Source of the DNA: Parcubacteria bacterium C7867-008
Lineage (GTDB): Bacteria > Patescibacteriota > Minisyncoccia > Phycocordibacterales > Phycocordibacteraceae
DNA length: 64,000 bases
Assembly: GCA_001189215.1 (NCBI GenBank)
Contig: LFCR01000004.1
Coordinates: 162,244 to 226,243, forward strand
Reading direction: 5' to 3'
The notes under the pieces were generated by a model. It ran no database searches and had not been told where the DNA came from. It saw nothing but the letters and a program-made list of their open reading frames with translations. Numbering within the stretch: position 1 is the stretch's first letter; every line of letters starts with the position of its first letter. Positions 4,016-57,015 of this stretch are shown one piece after another. The translations under genes were made by a program, and so were the position numbers.

Positions 4016-4028
4016 AAGGAGGTCTTTC

Positions 4029-4250
4029 GTGCCCCAAGAAACATTCACCGGTGAAGACCGGTACAAGCAGCTGGAGCGGTGGCGTGCCGTGATGGCAACG
4101 CGATCTGAAAAGTTCGCCATCCTCGAACACCGCAACAAAGCGGGGACAAGTGATGCTGAACCGACGGTAACCGTCGACTACTTCTTCCCTGAAGATGCCC
4201 CTGTCTCAGACATGCCCTGTCCCACGTGCGGTGGGAGACCCGAAGCCTAG
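4029..4250 (+). CDS. small GC-rich protein (74 aa) with a CPTCGG half zinc-ribbon, unknown function
   Basis: GTG start 7 nt after the strong SD AAGGAGG (4015-4021). GC-rich codons. Own terminator. Confidence 0.5.
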   Translation: MPQETFTGEDRYKQLERWRAVMATRSEKFAILEHRNKAGTSDAEPTVTVDYFFPEDAPVSDMPCPTCGGRPEA

Positions 4251-4272
4251 CGGTTTCGGGTCTTACTTTTAC
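4238..4272 (+). terminator. intrinsic terminator overlapping the stop codon of the small ORF
   Basis: Stem acccgaagcc/ggtttcgggt, loop tagc, then cttacttttac. Confidence 0.65.
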
Positions 4273-4290
4273 ATGCTATTTTAGGAATAT

Positions 4291-5622
4291 ATGGAACGAA
4301 CGCTCATAGGAGAGCTTAGTAGCTCGGCAGGAGAAACAGTCACTATCCAGGGATCGGTAGATGTGCGCCGCGATCAGGGTAAGCTCGTATTCTTTGATTT
4401 CAGAGATCGCACTGGTTCAGTACAGGGAGTGGTCCTTCCTGGGGATGAGGCACTCATGGAGATCGCTAAGTCGGTACGTAACGAGTTCATCGTTAGTGTT
4501 GATGGAATTGTTAACAAGCGTCCAGAAAAGAATATTCAAACAGACAAGCAAAATGGAGACATCGAGCTTGAAATCAAAGGCATCACGGTACTTGCTGCTG
4601 CAGAAGTACTTCCGTTTGAGCTAGACACGGAACTTAATCTCGATACCTATCTCGACTATCTCCCTCTTACTCTTCGCACCAAGCGCGCTCGCGCTATCTT
4701 CAAAGTGCAGTCTGAGATTGCCCGTGCATACCGTGCATTCCTCAATAGCGAAGGATTCACAGAATTCCAGGCACCAAAACTTATTGGTGATGATGCAGAG
4801 GGAAGCGGTGAAGTATTTGAAGTTCCATACTTCTATGGAAAGACAGCACACCTCGCAACAAGTCCCCAGCTCTATAAGCAGATTATGGTGGGTGCCCTTG
4901 AACGAGTATTTAGCATCGGTATTGTATTTCGTGCAGAGAAGCACAGCACCGCTCGCCACCTAAACGAATACACGTCGATGGATGTGGAGATGGGATACAT
5001 CACTGATCATCGAGATGTGATGAAGATGGAGAATCGTCTCATGCAGTTTATCGCTGCTGAACTTACGAAGACCTGTGCAGCAGAGTTCGCTCTTCTTGAA
5101 GCAGAAGTGCCTGTGGTTCCAGATGAAATTCCTTCTATGAAACTCCGTGCAGCACAGGAGCTTATCTTCAAAGAAACTGGGAAGGATAATCGCAATGAAC
5201 CTGATTTAGAGCCTGAAGATGAACGTTGGCTCTGCGAATGGTCTAAGAAGGAGCATGATTCTGATTTCGTGTTTGTTACGCACTACCCAGTATCCAAGCG
5301 CCCAATGTATACGATGGAAGACGAGGCGGATCCTGGCTTCACTAATGGCTTCGACCTACTCTTCCGTGGTGTTGAAATCACCACCGGTGGTCAACGTCGC
5401 CATGAGTACCAGAACCTCGTAGACGGTATCAAGATGAAGGGTCTTGATCCTGAAAAATTCTCGTACTATCTCCAAGCTTTCAAGTACGGCATTCCTCCGC
5501 ACGGCGGATGGGGTATGGGTCTTGAACGTCTTACCGCTAAATTCCTTGGTCTTGCTAACGTAAAGGAAGCAACACTCTTCCCTCGTGACATTAACCGCAT
5601 CGACACTCTACTTTCCGAATAA
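4291..5622 (+). CDS. class IIb aspartyl/asparaginyl-tRNA synthetase (AsnS / archaeal-type AspS-like)
   Basis: N-terminal OB fold. Motifs FRAEKHSTARHLNEYTSMD and GIPPHGGWGMGLERL. Confidence 0.8.
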   Translation: MERTLIGELSSSAGETVTIQGSVDVRRDQGKLVFFDFRDRTGSVQGVVLPGDEALMEIAKSVRNEFIVSVDGIVNKRPEKNIQTDKQNGDIELEIKGITVLAAAEVLPFELDTELNLDTYLDYLPLTLRTKRARAIFKVQSEIARAYRAFLNSEGFTEFQAPKLIGDDAEGSGEVFEVPYFYGKTAHLATSPQLYKQIMVGALERVFSIGIVFRAEKHSTARHLNEYTSMDVEMGYITDHRDVMKMENRLMQFIAAELTKTCAAEFALLEAEVPVVPDEIPSMKLRAAQELIFKETGKDNRNEPDLEPEDERWLCEWSKKEHDSDFVFVTHYPVSKRPMYTMEDEADPGFTNGFDLLFRGVEITTGGQRRHEYQNLVDGIKMKGLDPEKFSYYLQAFKYGIPPHGGWGMGLERLTAKFLGLANVKEATLFPRDINRIDTLLSE

Positions 5623-19113: not shown

Positions 19114-19347
19114 ATGAAAACGCTACTTTTCGGTGCAGTCGCATTAGCTGCCGTGGTCGCCGTCCCGGGCGTCTCCCTCGCGCAGACCTATGCATACGTT
19201 AACCAGAGCGGAGAAGTGATGACCACGGATGCACCCAATGCAAACCAGGCCATTATGACCGCTCCAAATATCGGCCTACATAGCGGAGTAATGCTGCTCC
19301 AAGACAGCTCTGATCCCGTTGTGGGCGATACGGTGAACGGCGTCTAG
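19114..19347 (+). CDS. small secreted protein (77 aa, signal peptide), GC-rich cassette
   Basis: N-terminal MKTLLFGAVALAAVVAVPGVSLA. Perfect 14-bp terminator downstream. Confidence 0.5.
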   Translation: MKTLLFGAVALAAVVAVPGVSLAQTYAYVNQSGEVMTTDAPNANQAIMTAPNIGLHSGVMLLQDSSDPVVGDTVNGV

Positions 19348-19367
19348 CTCTTTGCTCTTTCGTTCAG

Positions 19368-19410
19368 CATACAGGGACGGCTTTCGCCGTCCCTGTATGC
19401 ATTTACTTCA
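19368..19410 (+). terminator. intrinsic terminator
   Basis: Stem catacagggacggc/gccgtccctgtatg, loop tttc, T-rich tail. Confidence 0.65.
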
Positions 19411-29632: not shown

Positions 29633-29656
29633 GGAAAAGCTGGAGTTTTGGTCAAA

Positions 29657-29700
29657 AAGGGCCCTGTCTCAATACGAGACAGGGCCCTTGACCTTTTGTC
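29657..29700 (+). terminator. intrinsic terminator after rpmA
   Basis: aagggccctgtctc/gagacagggccctt then gaccttttgtc. Confidence 0.7.
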
Positions 29701-29778: not shown

Positions 29779-30999
29779 ATGGAAAAGATACTGAACTGGA
29801 TGAAGTTGGCACCCTGCCTACTCATCCTCGCTCTGACGGTCCTTGTGGCCACAGGCGCTCAGGCCAAGGACCTCGGTCCCAATGGCCTGACCAACGCCTG
29901 CACCATCGGGCTGCGGACGCAACTGAACCTCTCCGAGGAACAGGCGCGACAACTGCCCGACGGCTTCGCCGGGAAATACCTCGGCTACGACTTCACGCTC
30001 GGCAAGACACCACCCACCACGTTGTGGGGGTTCTGCGAGATCCTCGTCAAAGATGGGAGATTCTCGCAGGCCAACGTCGGACAGACTTCCGAGCCTGCTC
30101 CGACTCCGGAACCTGCAGCTGCCCTTGAGGCTGCTGCACCGGCTGCCGACCCGCCTGCTCCGGCACCTGAGGTGAAAGCCCCAGCTGCTGAAGCGAAGAG
30201 TGGTGGGGTGACCGTCGAGCTCGAACGGCGTGATCCGGCTCCCGTCTACGGGAAGCCAAACATCTTCGACAAGATGTGGTTTGCCACGCGGGACTTCTTC
30301 GGGTGGGCACGCAACGTGATCGTCAAGCACGAGGTGGTCAGTTCGCTGATTGCCACTCTGATCGCGGTTGCGATCGTGATCATGCTGCTCGCTCTTCGGC
30401 GACCTACGGCACAGTCCGACAATGACGAGCCCGAACCACAAGAAGACAAAGCTGATGGGCAATCCGGACCGATTCCGGCGCGCATCAGCGCTCCAGGCAG
30501 GTTCGCTGGCTTCAGCTACGATGACCTGGCCAGCTATGGCAAACGGTTCAAGAACGTCAAGCCGAAGGGCTTGTTCGAATCCTACGAAAGTCACCTGCGC
30601 CGTCTTCAAGCTGCCGGCCTCGACGTCTCTCACCTCCTCGACGAGGAAGAAGACGGAGATGATGATGCCGACGAGCAACCGCAGGACGATCCCGCTCCCA
30701 CCGCGAGCGACGCTGATCAAGCGCCTCCGGAAGAACCCGGACCCGCAGCACCTGCCACCGCGGCAGATGTACCCGACATGGTAGTGCCACCACTTCCGAT
30801 CGGGCGCCGCTCCAACCTTCCGCTGAGCTCTGAAGATGCAAAAGCGATCAAGGAGCTGAAGGCTATCCATGCCCAGCTGCAAGGCGAGAGCGACCGAGCC
30901 TACACAAACCGTCTTCGGGCGTTGGGTGTCGGCACCGGCCCTCTGGTGGGTACCCACGTCGCGGAACAAATTTCCGACGCCAAGACCTACCGTCCATGA
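29779..30999 (+). CDS. 406-aa GC-rich exported bitopic protein (signal peptide, Pro/Ala-rich linker, one TM, acidic cytoplasmic tail)
   Basis: AGGTG 7 nt before the ATG (MEKILNWMKL). The ORF-track start at 29770 is GTG. GC-rich throughout. Terminator follows. Confidence 0.5.
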   Translation: MEKILNWMKLAPCLLILALTVLVATGAQAKDLGPNGLTNACTIGLRTQLNLSEEQARQLPDGFAGKYLGYDFTLGKTPPTTLWGFCEILVKDGRFSQANVGQTSEPAPTPEPAAALEAAAPAADPPAPAPEVKAPAAEAKSGGVTVELERRDPAPVYGKPNIFDKMWFATRDFFGWARNVIVKHEVVSSLIATLIAVAIVIMLLALRRPTAQSDNDEPEPQEDKADGQSGPIPARISAPGRFAGFSYDDLASYGKRFKNVKPKGLFESYESHLRRLQAAGLDVSHLLDEEEDGDDDADEQPQDDPAPTASDADQAPPEEPGPAAPATAADVPDMVVPPLPIGRRSNLPLSSEDAKAIKELKAIHAQLQGESDRAYTNRLRALGVGTGPLVGTHVAEQISDAKTYRP

Positions 31000-31058
31000 G
31001 CCCTGGCTCATCACACACCCTATTCTGTAGCTGAATAAGCTGCATTCGCACATACAAG

Positions 31059-31100
31059 AAGGCGCCGCTCCCCCGTGGGACGGCGCCTTTTCTTATTGTC
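31059..31100 (+). terminator. intrinsic terminator (also sits downstream of the convergent rplI)
   Basis: aaggcgccg...cggcgcctt with inner tccc/ggga, then ttcttattg. Confidence 0.65.
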
Positions 31101-31109
31101 TTGTGAAGC

Positions 31110-31535
31110 TTATTCGGCCTCTACTGAAATGGTGATGGAACCAAAGTTCTCACCGTATGCCACAGGAATCTGGAATGCACCGAGTTCCTTGATTGGCTTC
31201 TCAAGCTTGATTGCTTCAAGAGGAAGCTTTGCCTCTTCAGCGATCTCCTTAGCATCAACCGCATCGTATAGGTGACCCTGCTCGTTAGCCTTCTTGATGA
31301 TTGAGATACGAGTCTCAGCAAGTGCTGAAAGGCGCTCCTCAATGAGCTTTGCTTCAACAGAACGTTTCTCATCAGACTGCTGCTTCATACCTTCAGCGCG
31401 CTTAATAGCCGTAGGGGTAGCAAGTACGGCAAGACCGCGTGGGATAAGCATGTTAAGACCGTGTCCATCAGACACGTCTAGTACAGTTCCTGCACGGCCC
31501 ATATCACGAACATCTTTCAGTAGGACAACTTTCAT
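31110..31535 (-). CDS. rplI: 50S ribosomal protein L9
   Basis: MKVVLLKDV..G..G.V..V..GY..N.LIP pattern. Confidence 0.85.
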   Translation of the reverse strand: MKVVLLKDVRDMGRAGTVLDVSDGHGLNMLIPRGLAVLATPTAIKRAEGMKQQSDEKRSVEAKLIEERLSALAETRISIIKKANEQGHLYDAVDAKEIAEEAKLPLEAIKLEKPIKELGAFQIPVAYGENFGSITISVEAE

Positions 31536-53834: not shown

Positions 53835-53891
53835 TGATGGCGGTCCGAAAGAAAAACCTCCGCGGCGACGCGGAGGACTTTCTATTTCTAC

Positions 53892-54365: not shown

Positions 54366-54420
54366 GTGAAATTAATATGAAAGTACCCGTATTGTACGTG
54401 GCGCAGCTGGCGCGTCAACA

Positions 54421-54456
54421 AGTGAAAAAGAGGGCCCCCATGCTTGCGCATGGGGG
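54421..54456 (-). terminator. intrinsic terminator
   Basis: gcccccatgc-ttgc-gcatgggggc with a T-run on the - strand. Confidence 0.65.
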
Positions 54457-54475
54457 CGAGATAATCCGGATTCTA

Positions 54476-55183
54476 TTATTGAGGGTTGGCGAAGGCCAGC
54501 AGCTTCCGCTCGTCGAGGTTTCGAACGACGAAAGTCATATCGTCGGGACCAATCGGTCCCGTGCCGGCAATCTTCTTCACGATAATATTCCATTTCCCTT
54601 CGTAGGGTCGGAGAATGCCGATACAGTCTTCATCCTTCCCTGTGTCGAGAAAGAAGTACGTCGGCTCGTCCGTCGTGTTGATCGAGAGAGGCAGGTCGCC
54701 GGTCAGAGCATGCAATGCCATCGCTTCGGCTTGCGCGAGCGTGAGCGTATAGCCGAGAGCTCGCACCGTCTGTCCAAACGGCATATGAAAGGAAAGCTCT
54801 CGAAACCCGGGAAGCTGTTCGGCGATCTGACGAAGATTGGATCTCTCCGTCAGACGCAACTTTGTGCCGATGCAGACGTTTGAACTCGACTGGCGTCCAG
54901 AGAACTGGGTTGCGGAAATCGATCGCTGCAGCCATGAATCTCCCACGCAGCATTCGGCGGTGTCCTTCTCCACGGTGTCAGGAATATAGAAACATCCCTG
55001 AGTCGTGAAGCGAGACGGTTCACGATATTTCTCGATCAGCCGTTCGAGCTCCACATCGAAGCCGTTCTTCCTTCGGCGAATGTGGTCCCCTTGGCGTTTG
55101 TTCAGGCCCTTGAGAAGTTTGGTCAGGGTGTCATGAAGCTCGCGCTTCGTGTTTCCGGACGCATTAACCTTACGTTCAAGCAT
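54476..55183 (-). CDS. 235-aa GC-rich protein of unknown function
   Basis: GGAG 9 nt before the ATG. GC-rich. Terminator downstream. Structured leader upstream. Confidence 0.5.
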   Translation of the reverse strand: MLERKVNASGNTKRELHDTLTKLLKGLNKRQGDHIRRRKNGFDVELERLIEKYREPSRFTTQGCFYIPDTVEKDTAECCVGDSWLQRSISATQFSGRQSSSNVCIGTKLRLTERSNLRQIAEQLPGFRELSFHMPFGQTVRALGYTLTLAQAEAMALHALTGDLPLSINTTDEPTYFFLDTGKDEDCIGILRPYEGKWNIIVKKIAGTGPIGPDDMTFVVRNLDERKLLAFANPQ

Positions 55184-55236
55184 GGTAGTCTCCAGCCCGG
55201 TTATTTAACGGCAGGGCGCGCCTTCTCCCCTCTCTG

Positions 55237-55285
55237 TGAGGTGAGCTCTCTAGCGCCTAGATAAGGCGCCACAGAGCTCACCTCA
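55237..55285. repeat. nested inverted repeat (13-bp outer stem, 5-bp inner stem) in the leader of the GC-rich gene / 3' of mrdA
   Basis: tgaggtgagctct...gcgcc..ggcgc...agagctcacctca. Confidence 0.5.
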
Positions 55286-55350
55286 AGAATCCATAATCAA
55301 AGAGCAGCAAGTACTATAATACATATATTACGGTATTTGTCAATTTGTCG

Positions 55351-57015
55351 TTACTGAAAGAATTCAGGTTTTGTTGCGTGGAGGTTGGTGAAGAAGTGGT
55401 GCATAGCATAGATACCTCCGATACTTGTTCCTGCAGGGCCCTTCTCCATCACCACGGTGTATACATACTTCGGATTATCGTACGGGAAAAATCCAACAGC
55501 CCAGGTGTTATAGAACTCGTTATGGAACCCGAGCTGTGCAGTACCGGTCTTTCCTGCAATCTTTGTGAAAGAAAGATCATTGAGCCCAAGAGAGGTACCT
55601 TCGGTGGCACCTATGCGCATACCTTCGCGTGCAACCTGTAGTGCTGCCTGACTTACAGGAATACTCTGTCCTGCAAGTGGTGGATCTTTTATGAGGGTTG
55701 GCTTCACTAACTTGCCACCGTTAGCAATAGCAGCAATGGCCCGAGCAGCTTCAAGGGGCGTTATCTGCACTGCGTACTGTCCGATACCCGTATGATACGT
55801 GTCGCCGATACGCCATGGCTCTTTAATGGTTTGTTCTTTCCATGCGGGTGATGGTACAAACCCACTCTTCTCACCGGCTAATTCAATACCGGTTGCTTTA
55901 GTTAATCCATAGGTCTCATACCAGTACTTAAGACGTTCGATACCCAGTCCTTTCTGACCACCGAAGCCACCTGTCACGGTATAGAAATAGACGTCTGAAG
56001 ACCACGCAATAGCGTGGCGCATATCCATAGCACCAAGTGCCTTCCAGTCTTTGAAAATGCTTGGATGTTCAGGATCGTATGGGTTTGGAAGTGAGATTGA
56101 ACCACTGGAGTATATGGTAGTTTCAGGTGCAATGATGCCATCGGTCATGACACCGGTTGCGATAAGTGGCTTCACTATGGATCCAGGTGTGTACAGACCA
56201 TTCACGGGACGATCGAGGTATGGCTGACGGGTGTCTTGAGAATAGCTGCCAATGATATCTGATGGACCGCCACTTGAAAGAACATTGGGGTCATATTCAG
56301 GATATGAAACCAGTGCAATCACTTCACCCGTGTTCACGTCCATTATTACTCCTGCCCCACCTTGATACGGAACCTTATCTGCTGTTTCCTTTATTGCGTC
56401 ATACAGTGCTTTTTGTGCAGCTGCATCGATAGAGAGAGTCAGTGACTGTCCATTCTGTGCAGGCTTCACACTTCCCTGACTCTGCACATGTCCAAGCGCA
56501 TCTTCTTCAACAAGAAGCGTACCGTTTGTACCTGAGAGTGTTTCATTAAATGCTGATTCAACACCGGCAAGACCCGTGATAACGGTGTCGTAATAGCGTC
56601 CAGCAGAATCTTTCTTTGGATACGATACATATCCGAGCAGGTGTCCGAAACCTGGAGATGCATAGGTGCGCTTCACTGAACCATCTTCGGTTTCAATGTT
56701 AGAAACAAGCGGTGTGCCTGTACGGTCAAGAATGGCTCCCCGTTGCGCAAACAATACTTCTGGACGCAGACGATTACGCTCACTCTGATTTGCAAATGTT
56801 GTTCCTTGAAGGAGTTCGAGATTCGCTGCCTGAGCAACAAGAGCACCAAATATAAGAAATGATACGAGAAAGAGTCCGAAGTATGTGGAACGTCCTATCG
56901 GCTTTTCGAGACGACCTTCAAGACTATTCTGATTAAACTCAGGTAAGTTAGAGGCATCCAGGAAGATGTCATCCGGATTGAGTTCTGGATCCTTGTATCG
57001 TCGTTTGCCGAACAT
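55351..57015 (-). CDS. mrdA: penicillin-binding protein 2 (elongasome transpeptidase)
   Basis: SIVKP (SxxK), SSD and KTGTA motifs. Downstream of mreBCD. Confidence 0.85.
   Translation of the reverse strand: MFGKRRYKDPELNPDDIFLDASNLPEFNQNSLEGRLEKPIGRSTYFGLFLVSFLIFGALVAQAANLELLQGTTFANQSERNRLRPEVLFAQRGAILDRTGTPLVSNIETEDGSVKRTYASPGFGHLLGYVSYPKKDSAGRYYDTVITGLAGVESAFNETLSGTNGTLLVEEDALGHVQSQGSVKPAQNGQSLTLSIDAAAQKALYDAIKETADKVPYQGGAGVIMDVNTGEVIALVSYPEYDPNVLSSGGPSDIIGSYSQDTRQPYLDRPVNGLYTPGSIVKPLIATGVMTDGIIAPETTIYSSGSISLPNPYDPEHPSIFKDWKALGAMDMRHAIAWSSDVYFYTVTGGFGGQKGLGIERLKYWYETYGLTKATGIELAGEKSGFVPSPAWKEQTIKEPWRIGDTYHTGIGQYAVQITPLEAARAIAAIANGGKLVKPTLIKDPPLAGQSIPVSQAALQVAREGMRIGATEGTSLGLNDLSFTKIAGKTGTAQLGFHNEFYNTWAVGFFPYDNPKYVYTVVMEKGPAGTSIGGIYAMHHFFTNLHATKPEFFQ

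Follow-up and report, generated by a model that had tools for sequence, protein, structure and literature searches.

A conserved, probably cis-acting leader structure upstream of a divergent diversity-generating retroelement variable-protein homologue in a Parcubacteria genome

An inserted gene and its hairpin

The window discussed here is a stretch of 64,000 nucleotides (nt) from Parcubacteria bacterium C7867-008 (contig LFCR01000004.1, positions 162,244 to 226,243), on whose minus strand mreB, mreC, PBP2/mrdA, an open reading frame (ORF) of 235 amino acids (aa), greA and lysS follow one another. Upstream of the ORF (54476-55183, minus strand) lies a long hairpin, termed P1 (55237-55285, minus strand), which a preliminary description of this DNA had singled out as an inverted repeat of 49 nt. 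The data indicate that P1 is probably one helix of a structured, cis-acting 5' leader RNA of approximately 120 nt in the mRNA of this gene, whose product is a distant member of a family of variable proteins of diversity-generating retroelements (DGRs).

The repeat lies where it had been described, with arms at 55237-55258 and 55264-55285 that measure 22 nt each, are 91% complementary and leave a gap of 5 nt. At the DNA level, the outer 13 base pairs (bp) are perfect, one mismatch falls among the inner eight positions and another at the junction. In the sense RNA (minus strand), the inner mismatch becomes a G-U pair and 21 of the 22 positions are paired, giving an imperfect 22-bp stem that consists of a 13-bp and an 8-bp helix with a single G-G mismatch between them and the loop UAUCU at its tip. 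The 49-nt sense RNA folds at -41.8 kcal/mol, compared to -15.6 +/- 2.7 kcal/mol for shuffled sequences (z = -9.7), and the fold of a 167-nt leader sequence reaches z = -5.0, so that the folding check proposed in the preliminary description places both far from shuffled sequence. When all 60-nt windows on both strands of the 64 kb are ranked, P1 comes first at -44.2 kcal/mol, with the runner-up at -35.8 kcal/mol and a mean of -11.8 kcal/mol (standard deviation 4.6).

P1 is located approximately 24 nt 3' of the predicted transcript start and 54 nt 5' of the ATG, with a GGAG Shine-Dalgarno (SD) sequence between it and the start codon. The stop codon of mrdA, and with it the insert edge described below, is 66 nt away, and the cassette promoter occupies the interval. 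As had been noted before, no T or U run follows P1 on either strand in the local sequence or in a terminator scan; its 3' flank reads CACAGAGAGG on the minus and AGAATCCATA on the plus strand. No second copy of P1 exists in the window at up to two mismatches, the only matches at two mismatches being chance ones.

The gene and its hairpin are part of an insertion. For comparison, 80 loci of related genomes were fetched with PBP2 as the query, and greA was then located in each. Compared with the nearest relative, C7867-007 (L003), the window is homologous as far as the mrdA stop codon (55351-55353) and again from TTGTTGACGCGC onward (54421 downward), which identifies the approximately 930 nt in between (54422-55350, minus strand) as a lineage-specific insert that extends from the mrdA stop codon to the greA promoter and brings its own promoter, leader, ORF and terminator. 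In C7867-007, the mrdA-greA gap measures 63 nt, only 6 nt stand at the place of the insert, and 9 nt separate the mrdA stop codon from the greA -35 hexamer. The greA promoter (54391-54418, minus strand; TTGACG, 16-nt spacer, TACAAT), which is kept in this insert-free relative, delimits the insert on the right. The insert is missing from the closest relative and from most of the 80 related genomes, where the median mrdA-greA gap is approximately 70 nt (76 loci) and the usual junction spans 24-100 nt.

Horizontal acquisition of the cassette and its placement between mrdA and greA is the best explanation for this pattern. The preliminary description had called the cassette GC-rich, which holds for the ORF to a modest degree (54.5% against 48.4% for the window) and more clearly for the GC content at third codon positions (64% against 40-46% in greA, mrdA, lysS and mreB). 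Neither the ORF list nor a profile scan contains a recombinase or transposase gene within the insert, and no terminal repeats besides TTGAC were seen at the two junctions. The TTGAC pair, which coincides with the -35 elements of the cassette (55338-55343) and of greA (54413-54418), could represent insertion microhomology or merely two promoters. An identical protein is on record as a hypothetical protein of Parcubacteria bacterium C7867-008 and is the sole close copy among 5.8 billion proteins; a JGI metagenome and a Logan assembly contain the same locus as well. Furthermore, approximately 20 related lineages carry unrelated inserts at the mrdA-greA junction, including MazF/PemK toxins (L009, L013), an SPFH protein (L035), a trypsin-like peptidase (L073), PPDK (L055) and unknown ORFs (L021, L050), and the junction looks like a recurrent insertion hotspot in Paceibacteria.

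The insert is a complete transcription unit. Its sigma-70-type promoter (55316-55343, minus strand) combines TTGACA, a 16-nt spacer and TATTAT, agrees with the consensus at 11 of 12 positions and is predicted to start transcription near 55309. At the other end of the leader, the invariant segment CCGGGCUGGAG (55190-55200, minus strand) contains the SD sequence GGAG (55190-55193) and is followed by the ATG (55181-55183), from which the ORF encodes 235 aa, as stated previously. The unit closes with a terminator-like hairpin (54425-54457, minus strand) of the form GCCCCCAUGC-GCAA-GCAUGGGGGC, followed by CCUCUUUUU. Specifically, a 10-bp stem with a GCAA loop (54434-54457) begins 19 nt past the stop codon and precedes CCTCTTTTT, and homologous genes likewise end in ACCCC...GGGGU hairpins with T-rich tails after the stop codon. 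The terminator scan called this hairpin and one after greA (53857-53876), both with a stem and a T run, and did not call P1. What is defined here is thereby a promoter-leader-target-terminator module that moved alone into a neighbourhood of core cell-shape and transcription genes.

Conservation and covariation of the leader

P1 is embedded in a leader (55191-55307, minus strand) of approximately 120-125 nt, which comprises P0, P1 and P2'/P2 and is assigned to a set of related leaders termed group A. Homologous leaders stand 5' of genes of the same protein family in L087, L094, L100 and L089, which stem from different organisms and samples. The contexts of the family genes that carry the leader are unrelated (for instance, after a HIT-family gene, Fic or RNase J), and the leader is found with or without an adjacent reverse transcriptase (RT) gene. 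The window leader aligns over its full length with those of L087, L094 and L100, and the elements follow in a shared order: a -35/-10 pair, which lies at equal distance in L087, L094, L100 and L089; GUUCUUUGA at the predicted 5' end; a long hairpin that starts from CUUGAGRYGAGC; the purine tract GGAGGRG; GCC-GCGCCC-GGC; GUUAUAAC; and finally CGGGCUGG(AG) with the ribosome-binding site (RBS) before the start codon. The window leader is 67-73% identical to these three, which are 65-79% identical to one another. It is therefore as close to the others as they are among themselves, though the window protein is four times more divergent.

A covariance model, R1, was built from four sequences, with L089 outside the training set. 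R1 matches the window leader at 103 bits (E = 2.5e-22) in an alignment that spans all 142 positions and includes every group A motif, and it recovers the untrained L089 copy at 67 bits (E = 2e-13). The 80 related mrdA loci, approximately 1 Mb in all, and the remainder of the window yielded no further match. The recurrence of the repeat at other cassette borders, for which the preliminary description had proposed a search, was accordingly not observed. That description had also regarded a repeat that is unique and not conserved as a sign against its significance; P1 is indeed unique in the window, yet it is conserved in the leaders of other, uncultured bacteria.

The P1 stem has been maintained by compensatory change. 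Among four sequences, 7 of the 25 pairs are doubly changed while 95% of the cells in the alignment are paired; with five sequences, compensatory changes are seen at 10 of the 25 pairs and 94% of the cells are paired, a result that none of 500 shuffles reached. Sliding the register of the alignment lowers pairing to 36-49%. The G-U pairs fall on the sense strand, and sense P1 is more stable than its antisense counterpart in four of the five loci. In its distal part, P1 has a 5-nt loop in the window and an insert of 27-35 nt with a mini-hairpin in the others, and this variable loop length fits a stem-loop and misfits an operator of fixed spacing. A binding site for a dimeric protein, which corresponds to one of the options offered before, is thus disfavored, as the distance between the arms ranges from 5 to approximately 35 nt among homologues.

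Two further elements accompany P1. The 5' pyrimidine tract GCUCUUU (55299-55305, minus strand) is the candidate 5' strand of a helix, P0, that appears in both the RNAalifold and the single-sequence fold. Its candidate 3' strand is the purine-rich, SD-like tract CAGAGAGGGGAGA (55224-55236, minus strand; GGAGGRG in L087, L094 and L100) just 3' of P1, and with this predicted pairing the transcript would be closed at its 5' end. Group A leaders share GUUCUUUGA almost without variation, and L083 has it as well. The second element is a small hairpin, P2' (55210-55222, minus strand; GGCG-CGCCC-UGCC). The GGCGCGCC palindrome that had been noticed near the long repeat does exist, at 55215-55222, and is part of this second conserved hairpin. 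In homologues, P2' reads GCCG-CGCCC-UGGC, with one compensatory flip in the window from C-G to G-C, and it is present in the minimum-free-energy folds of the window, L087 and L089. An alternative helix between GCCC (55214-55217) and GGGC (55195-55198) never varies and is uninformative.

Other subgroups of the family have different leaders of an analogous two-hairpin design. Specifically, group B leaders (eight sequences) open with a three-part hairpin at the predicted 5' end, and three pairs covary in their second, GCGCC hairpin, and group C leaders (L083, L092) combine a long GCCACAGCAG hairpin with a second hairpin. The Rfam scan that had been suggested matched no family: in Rfam 15, the insert region at E <= 10 yields only sub-threshold microRNA-precursor models (20.7 bits versus 230), and a scan of ten family loci at the gathering threshold returned no leader match, only unrelated group I introns. 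In L089, a second gene (135-920, approximately 217-224 aa) directly upstream of a canonical family member carries the group A leader recovered by R1 and shares with the family only the N-terminal helical domain with the motif 'SG.KQR', which is followed by an unrelated C-terminal domain that has no Pfam hit; the leader and the N-terminal domain seem to behave as a module.

A family of variable proteins

The 235-aa protein has no match in Pfam, NCBIfam, PADLOC or PHROGs. An exhaustive HMMER scan of 1.8 billion representatives returned few proteins, of approximately 200-240 aa (E = 4e-6 to 6e-4), as well as one repeat-protein match that was judged spurious. Single-sequence phmmer gave E-values of 1e-5 to 1e-6, phmmer and profile searches tie the ORF to P0003-P0023, and the profile search enlarged the family to approximately 20 members. 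Their alignment is held together by the motifs GYTMTLAQAE, GNFFFVE and LVRNLD, with 7-8 invariant and approximately 16-24 nearly invariant columns. The window protein is 19-23% identical to the family, the other members being 54-67% identical to one another. A metagenome scan added five loci and no more. No member was found in a viral-contig collection, and a phage origin is not supported by that collection.

Features of the other members reveal the nature of this previously unannotated family. In L087, L088, L094, L095 and L098, an RVT_1 reverse transcriptase lies 0.3-0.8 kb downstream of the family gene. In L087 and L088, furthermore, the last approximately 115 nt of the gene are repeated approximately 390 nt downstream with an identity of 86% and 81%, respectively, and every mismatch between the two copies falls at an adenine of the downstream one (16 of 16 in L087, 21 of 21 in L088). 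This is the relation between a variable repeat (VR) and a template repeat (TR), and the family is therefore one of DGR variable proteins, given the C-terminal VR, the adenine-only differences from the TR and the RT in other members. A retron reading of the RT-linked homologues was dropped after this adenine pattern had been seen. The VRs of P0012 and P0019 lie at L087 6550-6666 and L088 907-1018, and protein alignment to these two places a putative VR-equivalent region at 54515-54630 (minus strand) in the window, as an assignment by homology only.

There is no TR-like copy within the 64 kb, and a tblastn search of the window with two family-linked RTs gave a best E-value of 2. The family RTs belong to a very large Patescibacteria clade with more than 8000 related RTs; among the best 120 of these, no named entry is from C7867-008, which is uninformative as to whether it has an RT. 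The clade agrees with the description of a DGR clade restricted to the candidate phyla radiation (CPR) (PMC8144416), and remote targets are documented for other DGRs (PMC5758913). In size and architecture, with a helical hairpin at the N-terminus and a putative C-type-lectin-like domain, the ORF matches the C-type-lectin variable proteins of DGRs (Bordetella phage Mtd, Treponema denticola TvpA and CPR 'unknown VR' targets), and its predicted fold resembles CLec/FGE domains, TvpA included. The homology extends to members with a C-terminal VR, an adenine-specific TR and a downstream RT. Judged by its sequence, the divergent ORF is thus best filed as a stand-alone, highly divergent DGR variable-protein homologue from Patescibacteria, with the partnership with TR and RT demonstrated for its relatives only.

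Several observations in the related loci concern the organization of these elements. Two tandem family genes, each with a promoter, a group B leader and a terminator hairpin, are found in L097 (2083-3699) and L099 (612-2228), which represents a multi-target arrangement. In L098, a large serine recombinase (4024-5343; Resolvase/Recombinase/Zn_ribbon_recom) adjoins the DGR, which hints that some of these DGRs ride mobile elements. Directly after the template repeat, L087 (7052-7095) and L088 (1408-1450) carry a CUCCCGCC...GCGGGAG hairpin with a T run, and the TR RNA seems to have its own terminator, apart from the target gene and the RT. In L094, the 3' flank of the family gene (4680-4740) is TR-like, with GTCTGAAACAAGTCT...CTCCCGCC, and the gene product, P0007, is cut short at '...RLMV'; the end of this gene reflects either a collapse of VR onto TR by the assembler or a real VR-TR deletion.

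Possible roles of the leader

The leader is far better conserved than the protein and carries compensatory substitutions in its hairpin, and it therefore most likely acts in cis as RNA. Among the options that had been put forward for the repeat, a regulatory RNA structure is the one favored by its position between promoter and RBS and by the compensatory changes in homologous leaders; a cis-acting RNA is the best-supported reading because the structure is conserved, gene-specific, promoter-proximal and kept by compensatory change. As for the mechanism, we infer control of mRNA stability or of translation. The leader would be transcribed from the cassette's own promoter, as predicted, within the mRNA of the 235-aa gene. 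The long P1 stem, with its base closed by the P0 pyrimidine/purine pairing, would lock the 5' end of the transcript, and this locked end could set the stability of the mRNA. In turn, the P2' hairpin and the invariant segment beside the SD sequence may set or gate translation initiation of the variable protein.

In other bacteria, a 5' end buried in a stable stem protects mRNAs from 5'-end-dependent decay, and stabilizing stem-loops or structured 5' untranslated regions (UTRs) are known from Escherichia coli ompA and from the Bacillus subtilis aprE and ermC leaders. The group A leader resembles these in having a stable stem-loop near the 5' end of the mRNA, before the RBS and specific to one gene. 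Unlike them, it belongs to a conserved family that has several helices as well as invariant single-stranded segments, and it is tied to genes for hypervariable proteins. No description of such a leader was found in the searched DGR literature. The group A leader is best read as a new RNA motif that acts in cis from the 5' leader and is of a generally familiar kind; its novelty lies in the tie to a hypervariable-protein family and in the conservation of the leader above that of the coding sequence.

Several points weigh against this interpretation. The transcription start and the leader RNA itself are predictions, and base-pair probabilities of the SD sequence and the AUG reveal no obvious on/off design; a switch that acts by SD sequestration was rejected as these probabilities gave no clear pattern. 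Group A consists of five sequences only, which limits the covariation statistics, and the alignment used (A9) was fitted to the model. Neither P0 nor the GCCC/GGGC helix shows compensatory change, and variation in P0 is of the G-U or one-sided type, which leaves P0 a weakly supported helix. L087 is an exception in that its hairpin is more stable on the antisense strand, and an RNA hairpin and a DNA cruciform cannot be told apart by covariation alone. Lastly, the window protein has diverged so far that it may have ceased to be a DGR target.

A different kind of RNA function is possible, though a good deal less likely than the stability or translation control described above. According to this alternative, the leader is a processing or sensor RNA, that is, an RNase III site or a leader that switches expression upon binding a ligand or a protein, such as the variable protein itself or a component of the DGR. 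Near-perfect duplexes of 22-25 bp are of the size class cut by RNase III, and P1, with roughly two turns, falls into it. The invariant unpaired GUUCUUUGA, CGCCC, GUUAUAAC and CGGGCUGGAG segments exceed what a simple stabilizer needs, and the conservation of the leader far beyond that of the protein is also compatible with sensing. However, there is no riboswitch or leader match in Rfam, the folds show no obvious alternative-pairing switch, nothing points to a ligand or partner, and the leader is present irrespective of an adjacent RT. A bolder form of the idea, to which we assign a slightly lower probability still, is that the leader constitutes a dedicated sensor or recruitment RNA for the hypervariable-protein genes of Patescibacteria, riboswitch-like or protein-binding and possibly recognized by a DGR component or RNase III, which couples the expression of DGR targets, and even their diversification, to a signal. 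If so, stand-alone remote targets would keep the same control after horizontal transfer.

Explanations at the DNA level are unlikely. Here, P1 would be a cruciform or a protein-bound palindrome that signals recombination or insertion of the cassette or assists DGR retrohoming as an accessory site. Compatible with this are the cassette being an insertion, the TTGAC at both junctions, the covariation of the palindrome, which suits a cruciform equally well, and the better fold of the antisense strand in L087. DGR targets, furthermore, need a DNA hairpin or cruciform, which lies immediately 3' of the VR and its initiation of mutagenic homing (IMH) sequence and acts on DNA (Guo et al. 2011, PMC3240598). 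P1 shares with that element that it is a short inverted repeat at a DGR target gene in which the structure of the stem outweighs its sequence. In contrast, P1 lies 5' of the gene, approximately 700 nt from the VR-equivalent region, and is much longer, at 22-25 bp; by position, the hairpin at 54434-54457 is a closer counterpart, yet it looks like a plain terminator.

The position of P1 also argues against a role in insertion. P1 lies 66 nt inside the insert, off the junction and behind the cassette promoter, it occurs once and lacks a partner at the other insert end, and the insert has no recombinase or transposase gene. The earlier suggestion of a recombination site or border element is not borne out by this placement or by the lack of recurrence at other borders. 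Arm spacing from 5 to approximately 35 nt speaks against a protein-bound palindrome, and the G-U pairs and the conserved single-stranded motifs flanking the stem favor sense RNA. Integron attC sites, repetitive extragenic palindromic (REP) elements and miniature inverted-repeat transposable elements (MITEs) are similar in that an imperfect inverted repeat stands beside a small promoter-proximal cassette gene; P1 differs in lying on the 5' side of the ORF, off the junction, and in being single-copy in the window and the additional 1 Mb. An attC or REP reading was rejected with the 5' position of P1, its distance inside the insert and the lack of further copies.

Very little speaks for P1 as a terminator or insulator independent of a U tract, which would end the mreBCD-mrdA transcript and prevent read-through into the cassette and greA. 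A very stable GC-containing hairpin does stand 66 nt past the mrdA stop codon on the same strand, in the intergenic position after a gene that is typical of Rho-independent terminators. P1 differs from these in having no U tract, in lying after a promoter and in being conserved as a gene leader elsewhere. The ordinary terminators of this genome have a stem and a T run, which agrees with the earlier view that P1 is not a standard terminator. mrdA needs no terminator here because, in relatives free of the insert, mrdA and greA are not separated by a hairpin and the -35 element of greA follows only 9 nt past the stop codon. The hairpin, moreover, travels with the family gene through unrelated genomic contexts, and as it is downstream of the cassette promoter, it would block the cassette transcript too. 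Least credible of all is a chance or decaying, functionless palindrome in a dying DGR-target remnant: the window protein is the most divergent member and neither TR nor RT is present in the window, but the cassette has an intact ORF, RBS and terminator and an intact near-consensus promoter, the pairing is compensatory, the leader is 67-73% identical to others, and no local fold in the 64 kb is more stable than P1.

DGRs are very common in CPR bacteria, and, to our knowledge, almost nothing is known about the expression and function of their target genes. The structured leader RNA defined here, conserved above its protein, would as a regulatory RNA provide a testable 120-nt handle on the control of hypervariable proteins in unculturable organisms and add one more bacterial cis-regulatory motif to the catalogue. 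Should it be a mere stabilizer hairpin, it would make for a useful annotation and no surprise.

Two minor observations concern other structured sequences. The group I intron matches mentioned above lie near gatCA in L087 (2987-3200) and L088 (5256-5456) and score 54 and 52 bits, respectively, just over the Rfam gathering threshold. Within the window, other strong hairpins or long imperfect inverted repeats are located at 31030-31118, 29635-29694, 29843-29902 and 19343-19402, with 38-nt arms at 31030 and 31081 and folds of -34 to -36 kcal/mol.

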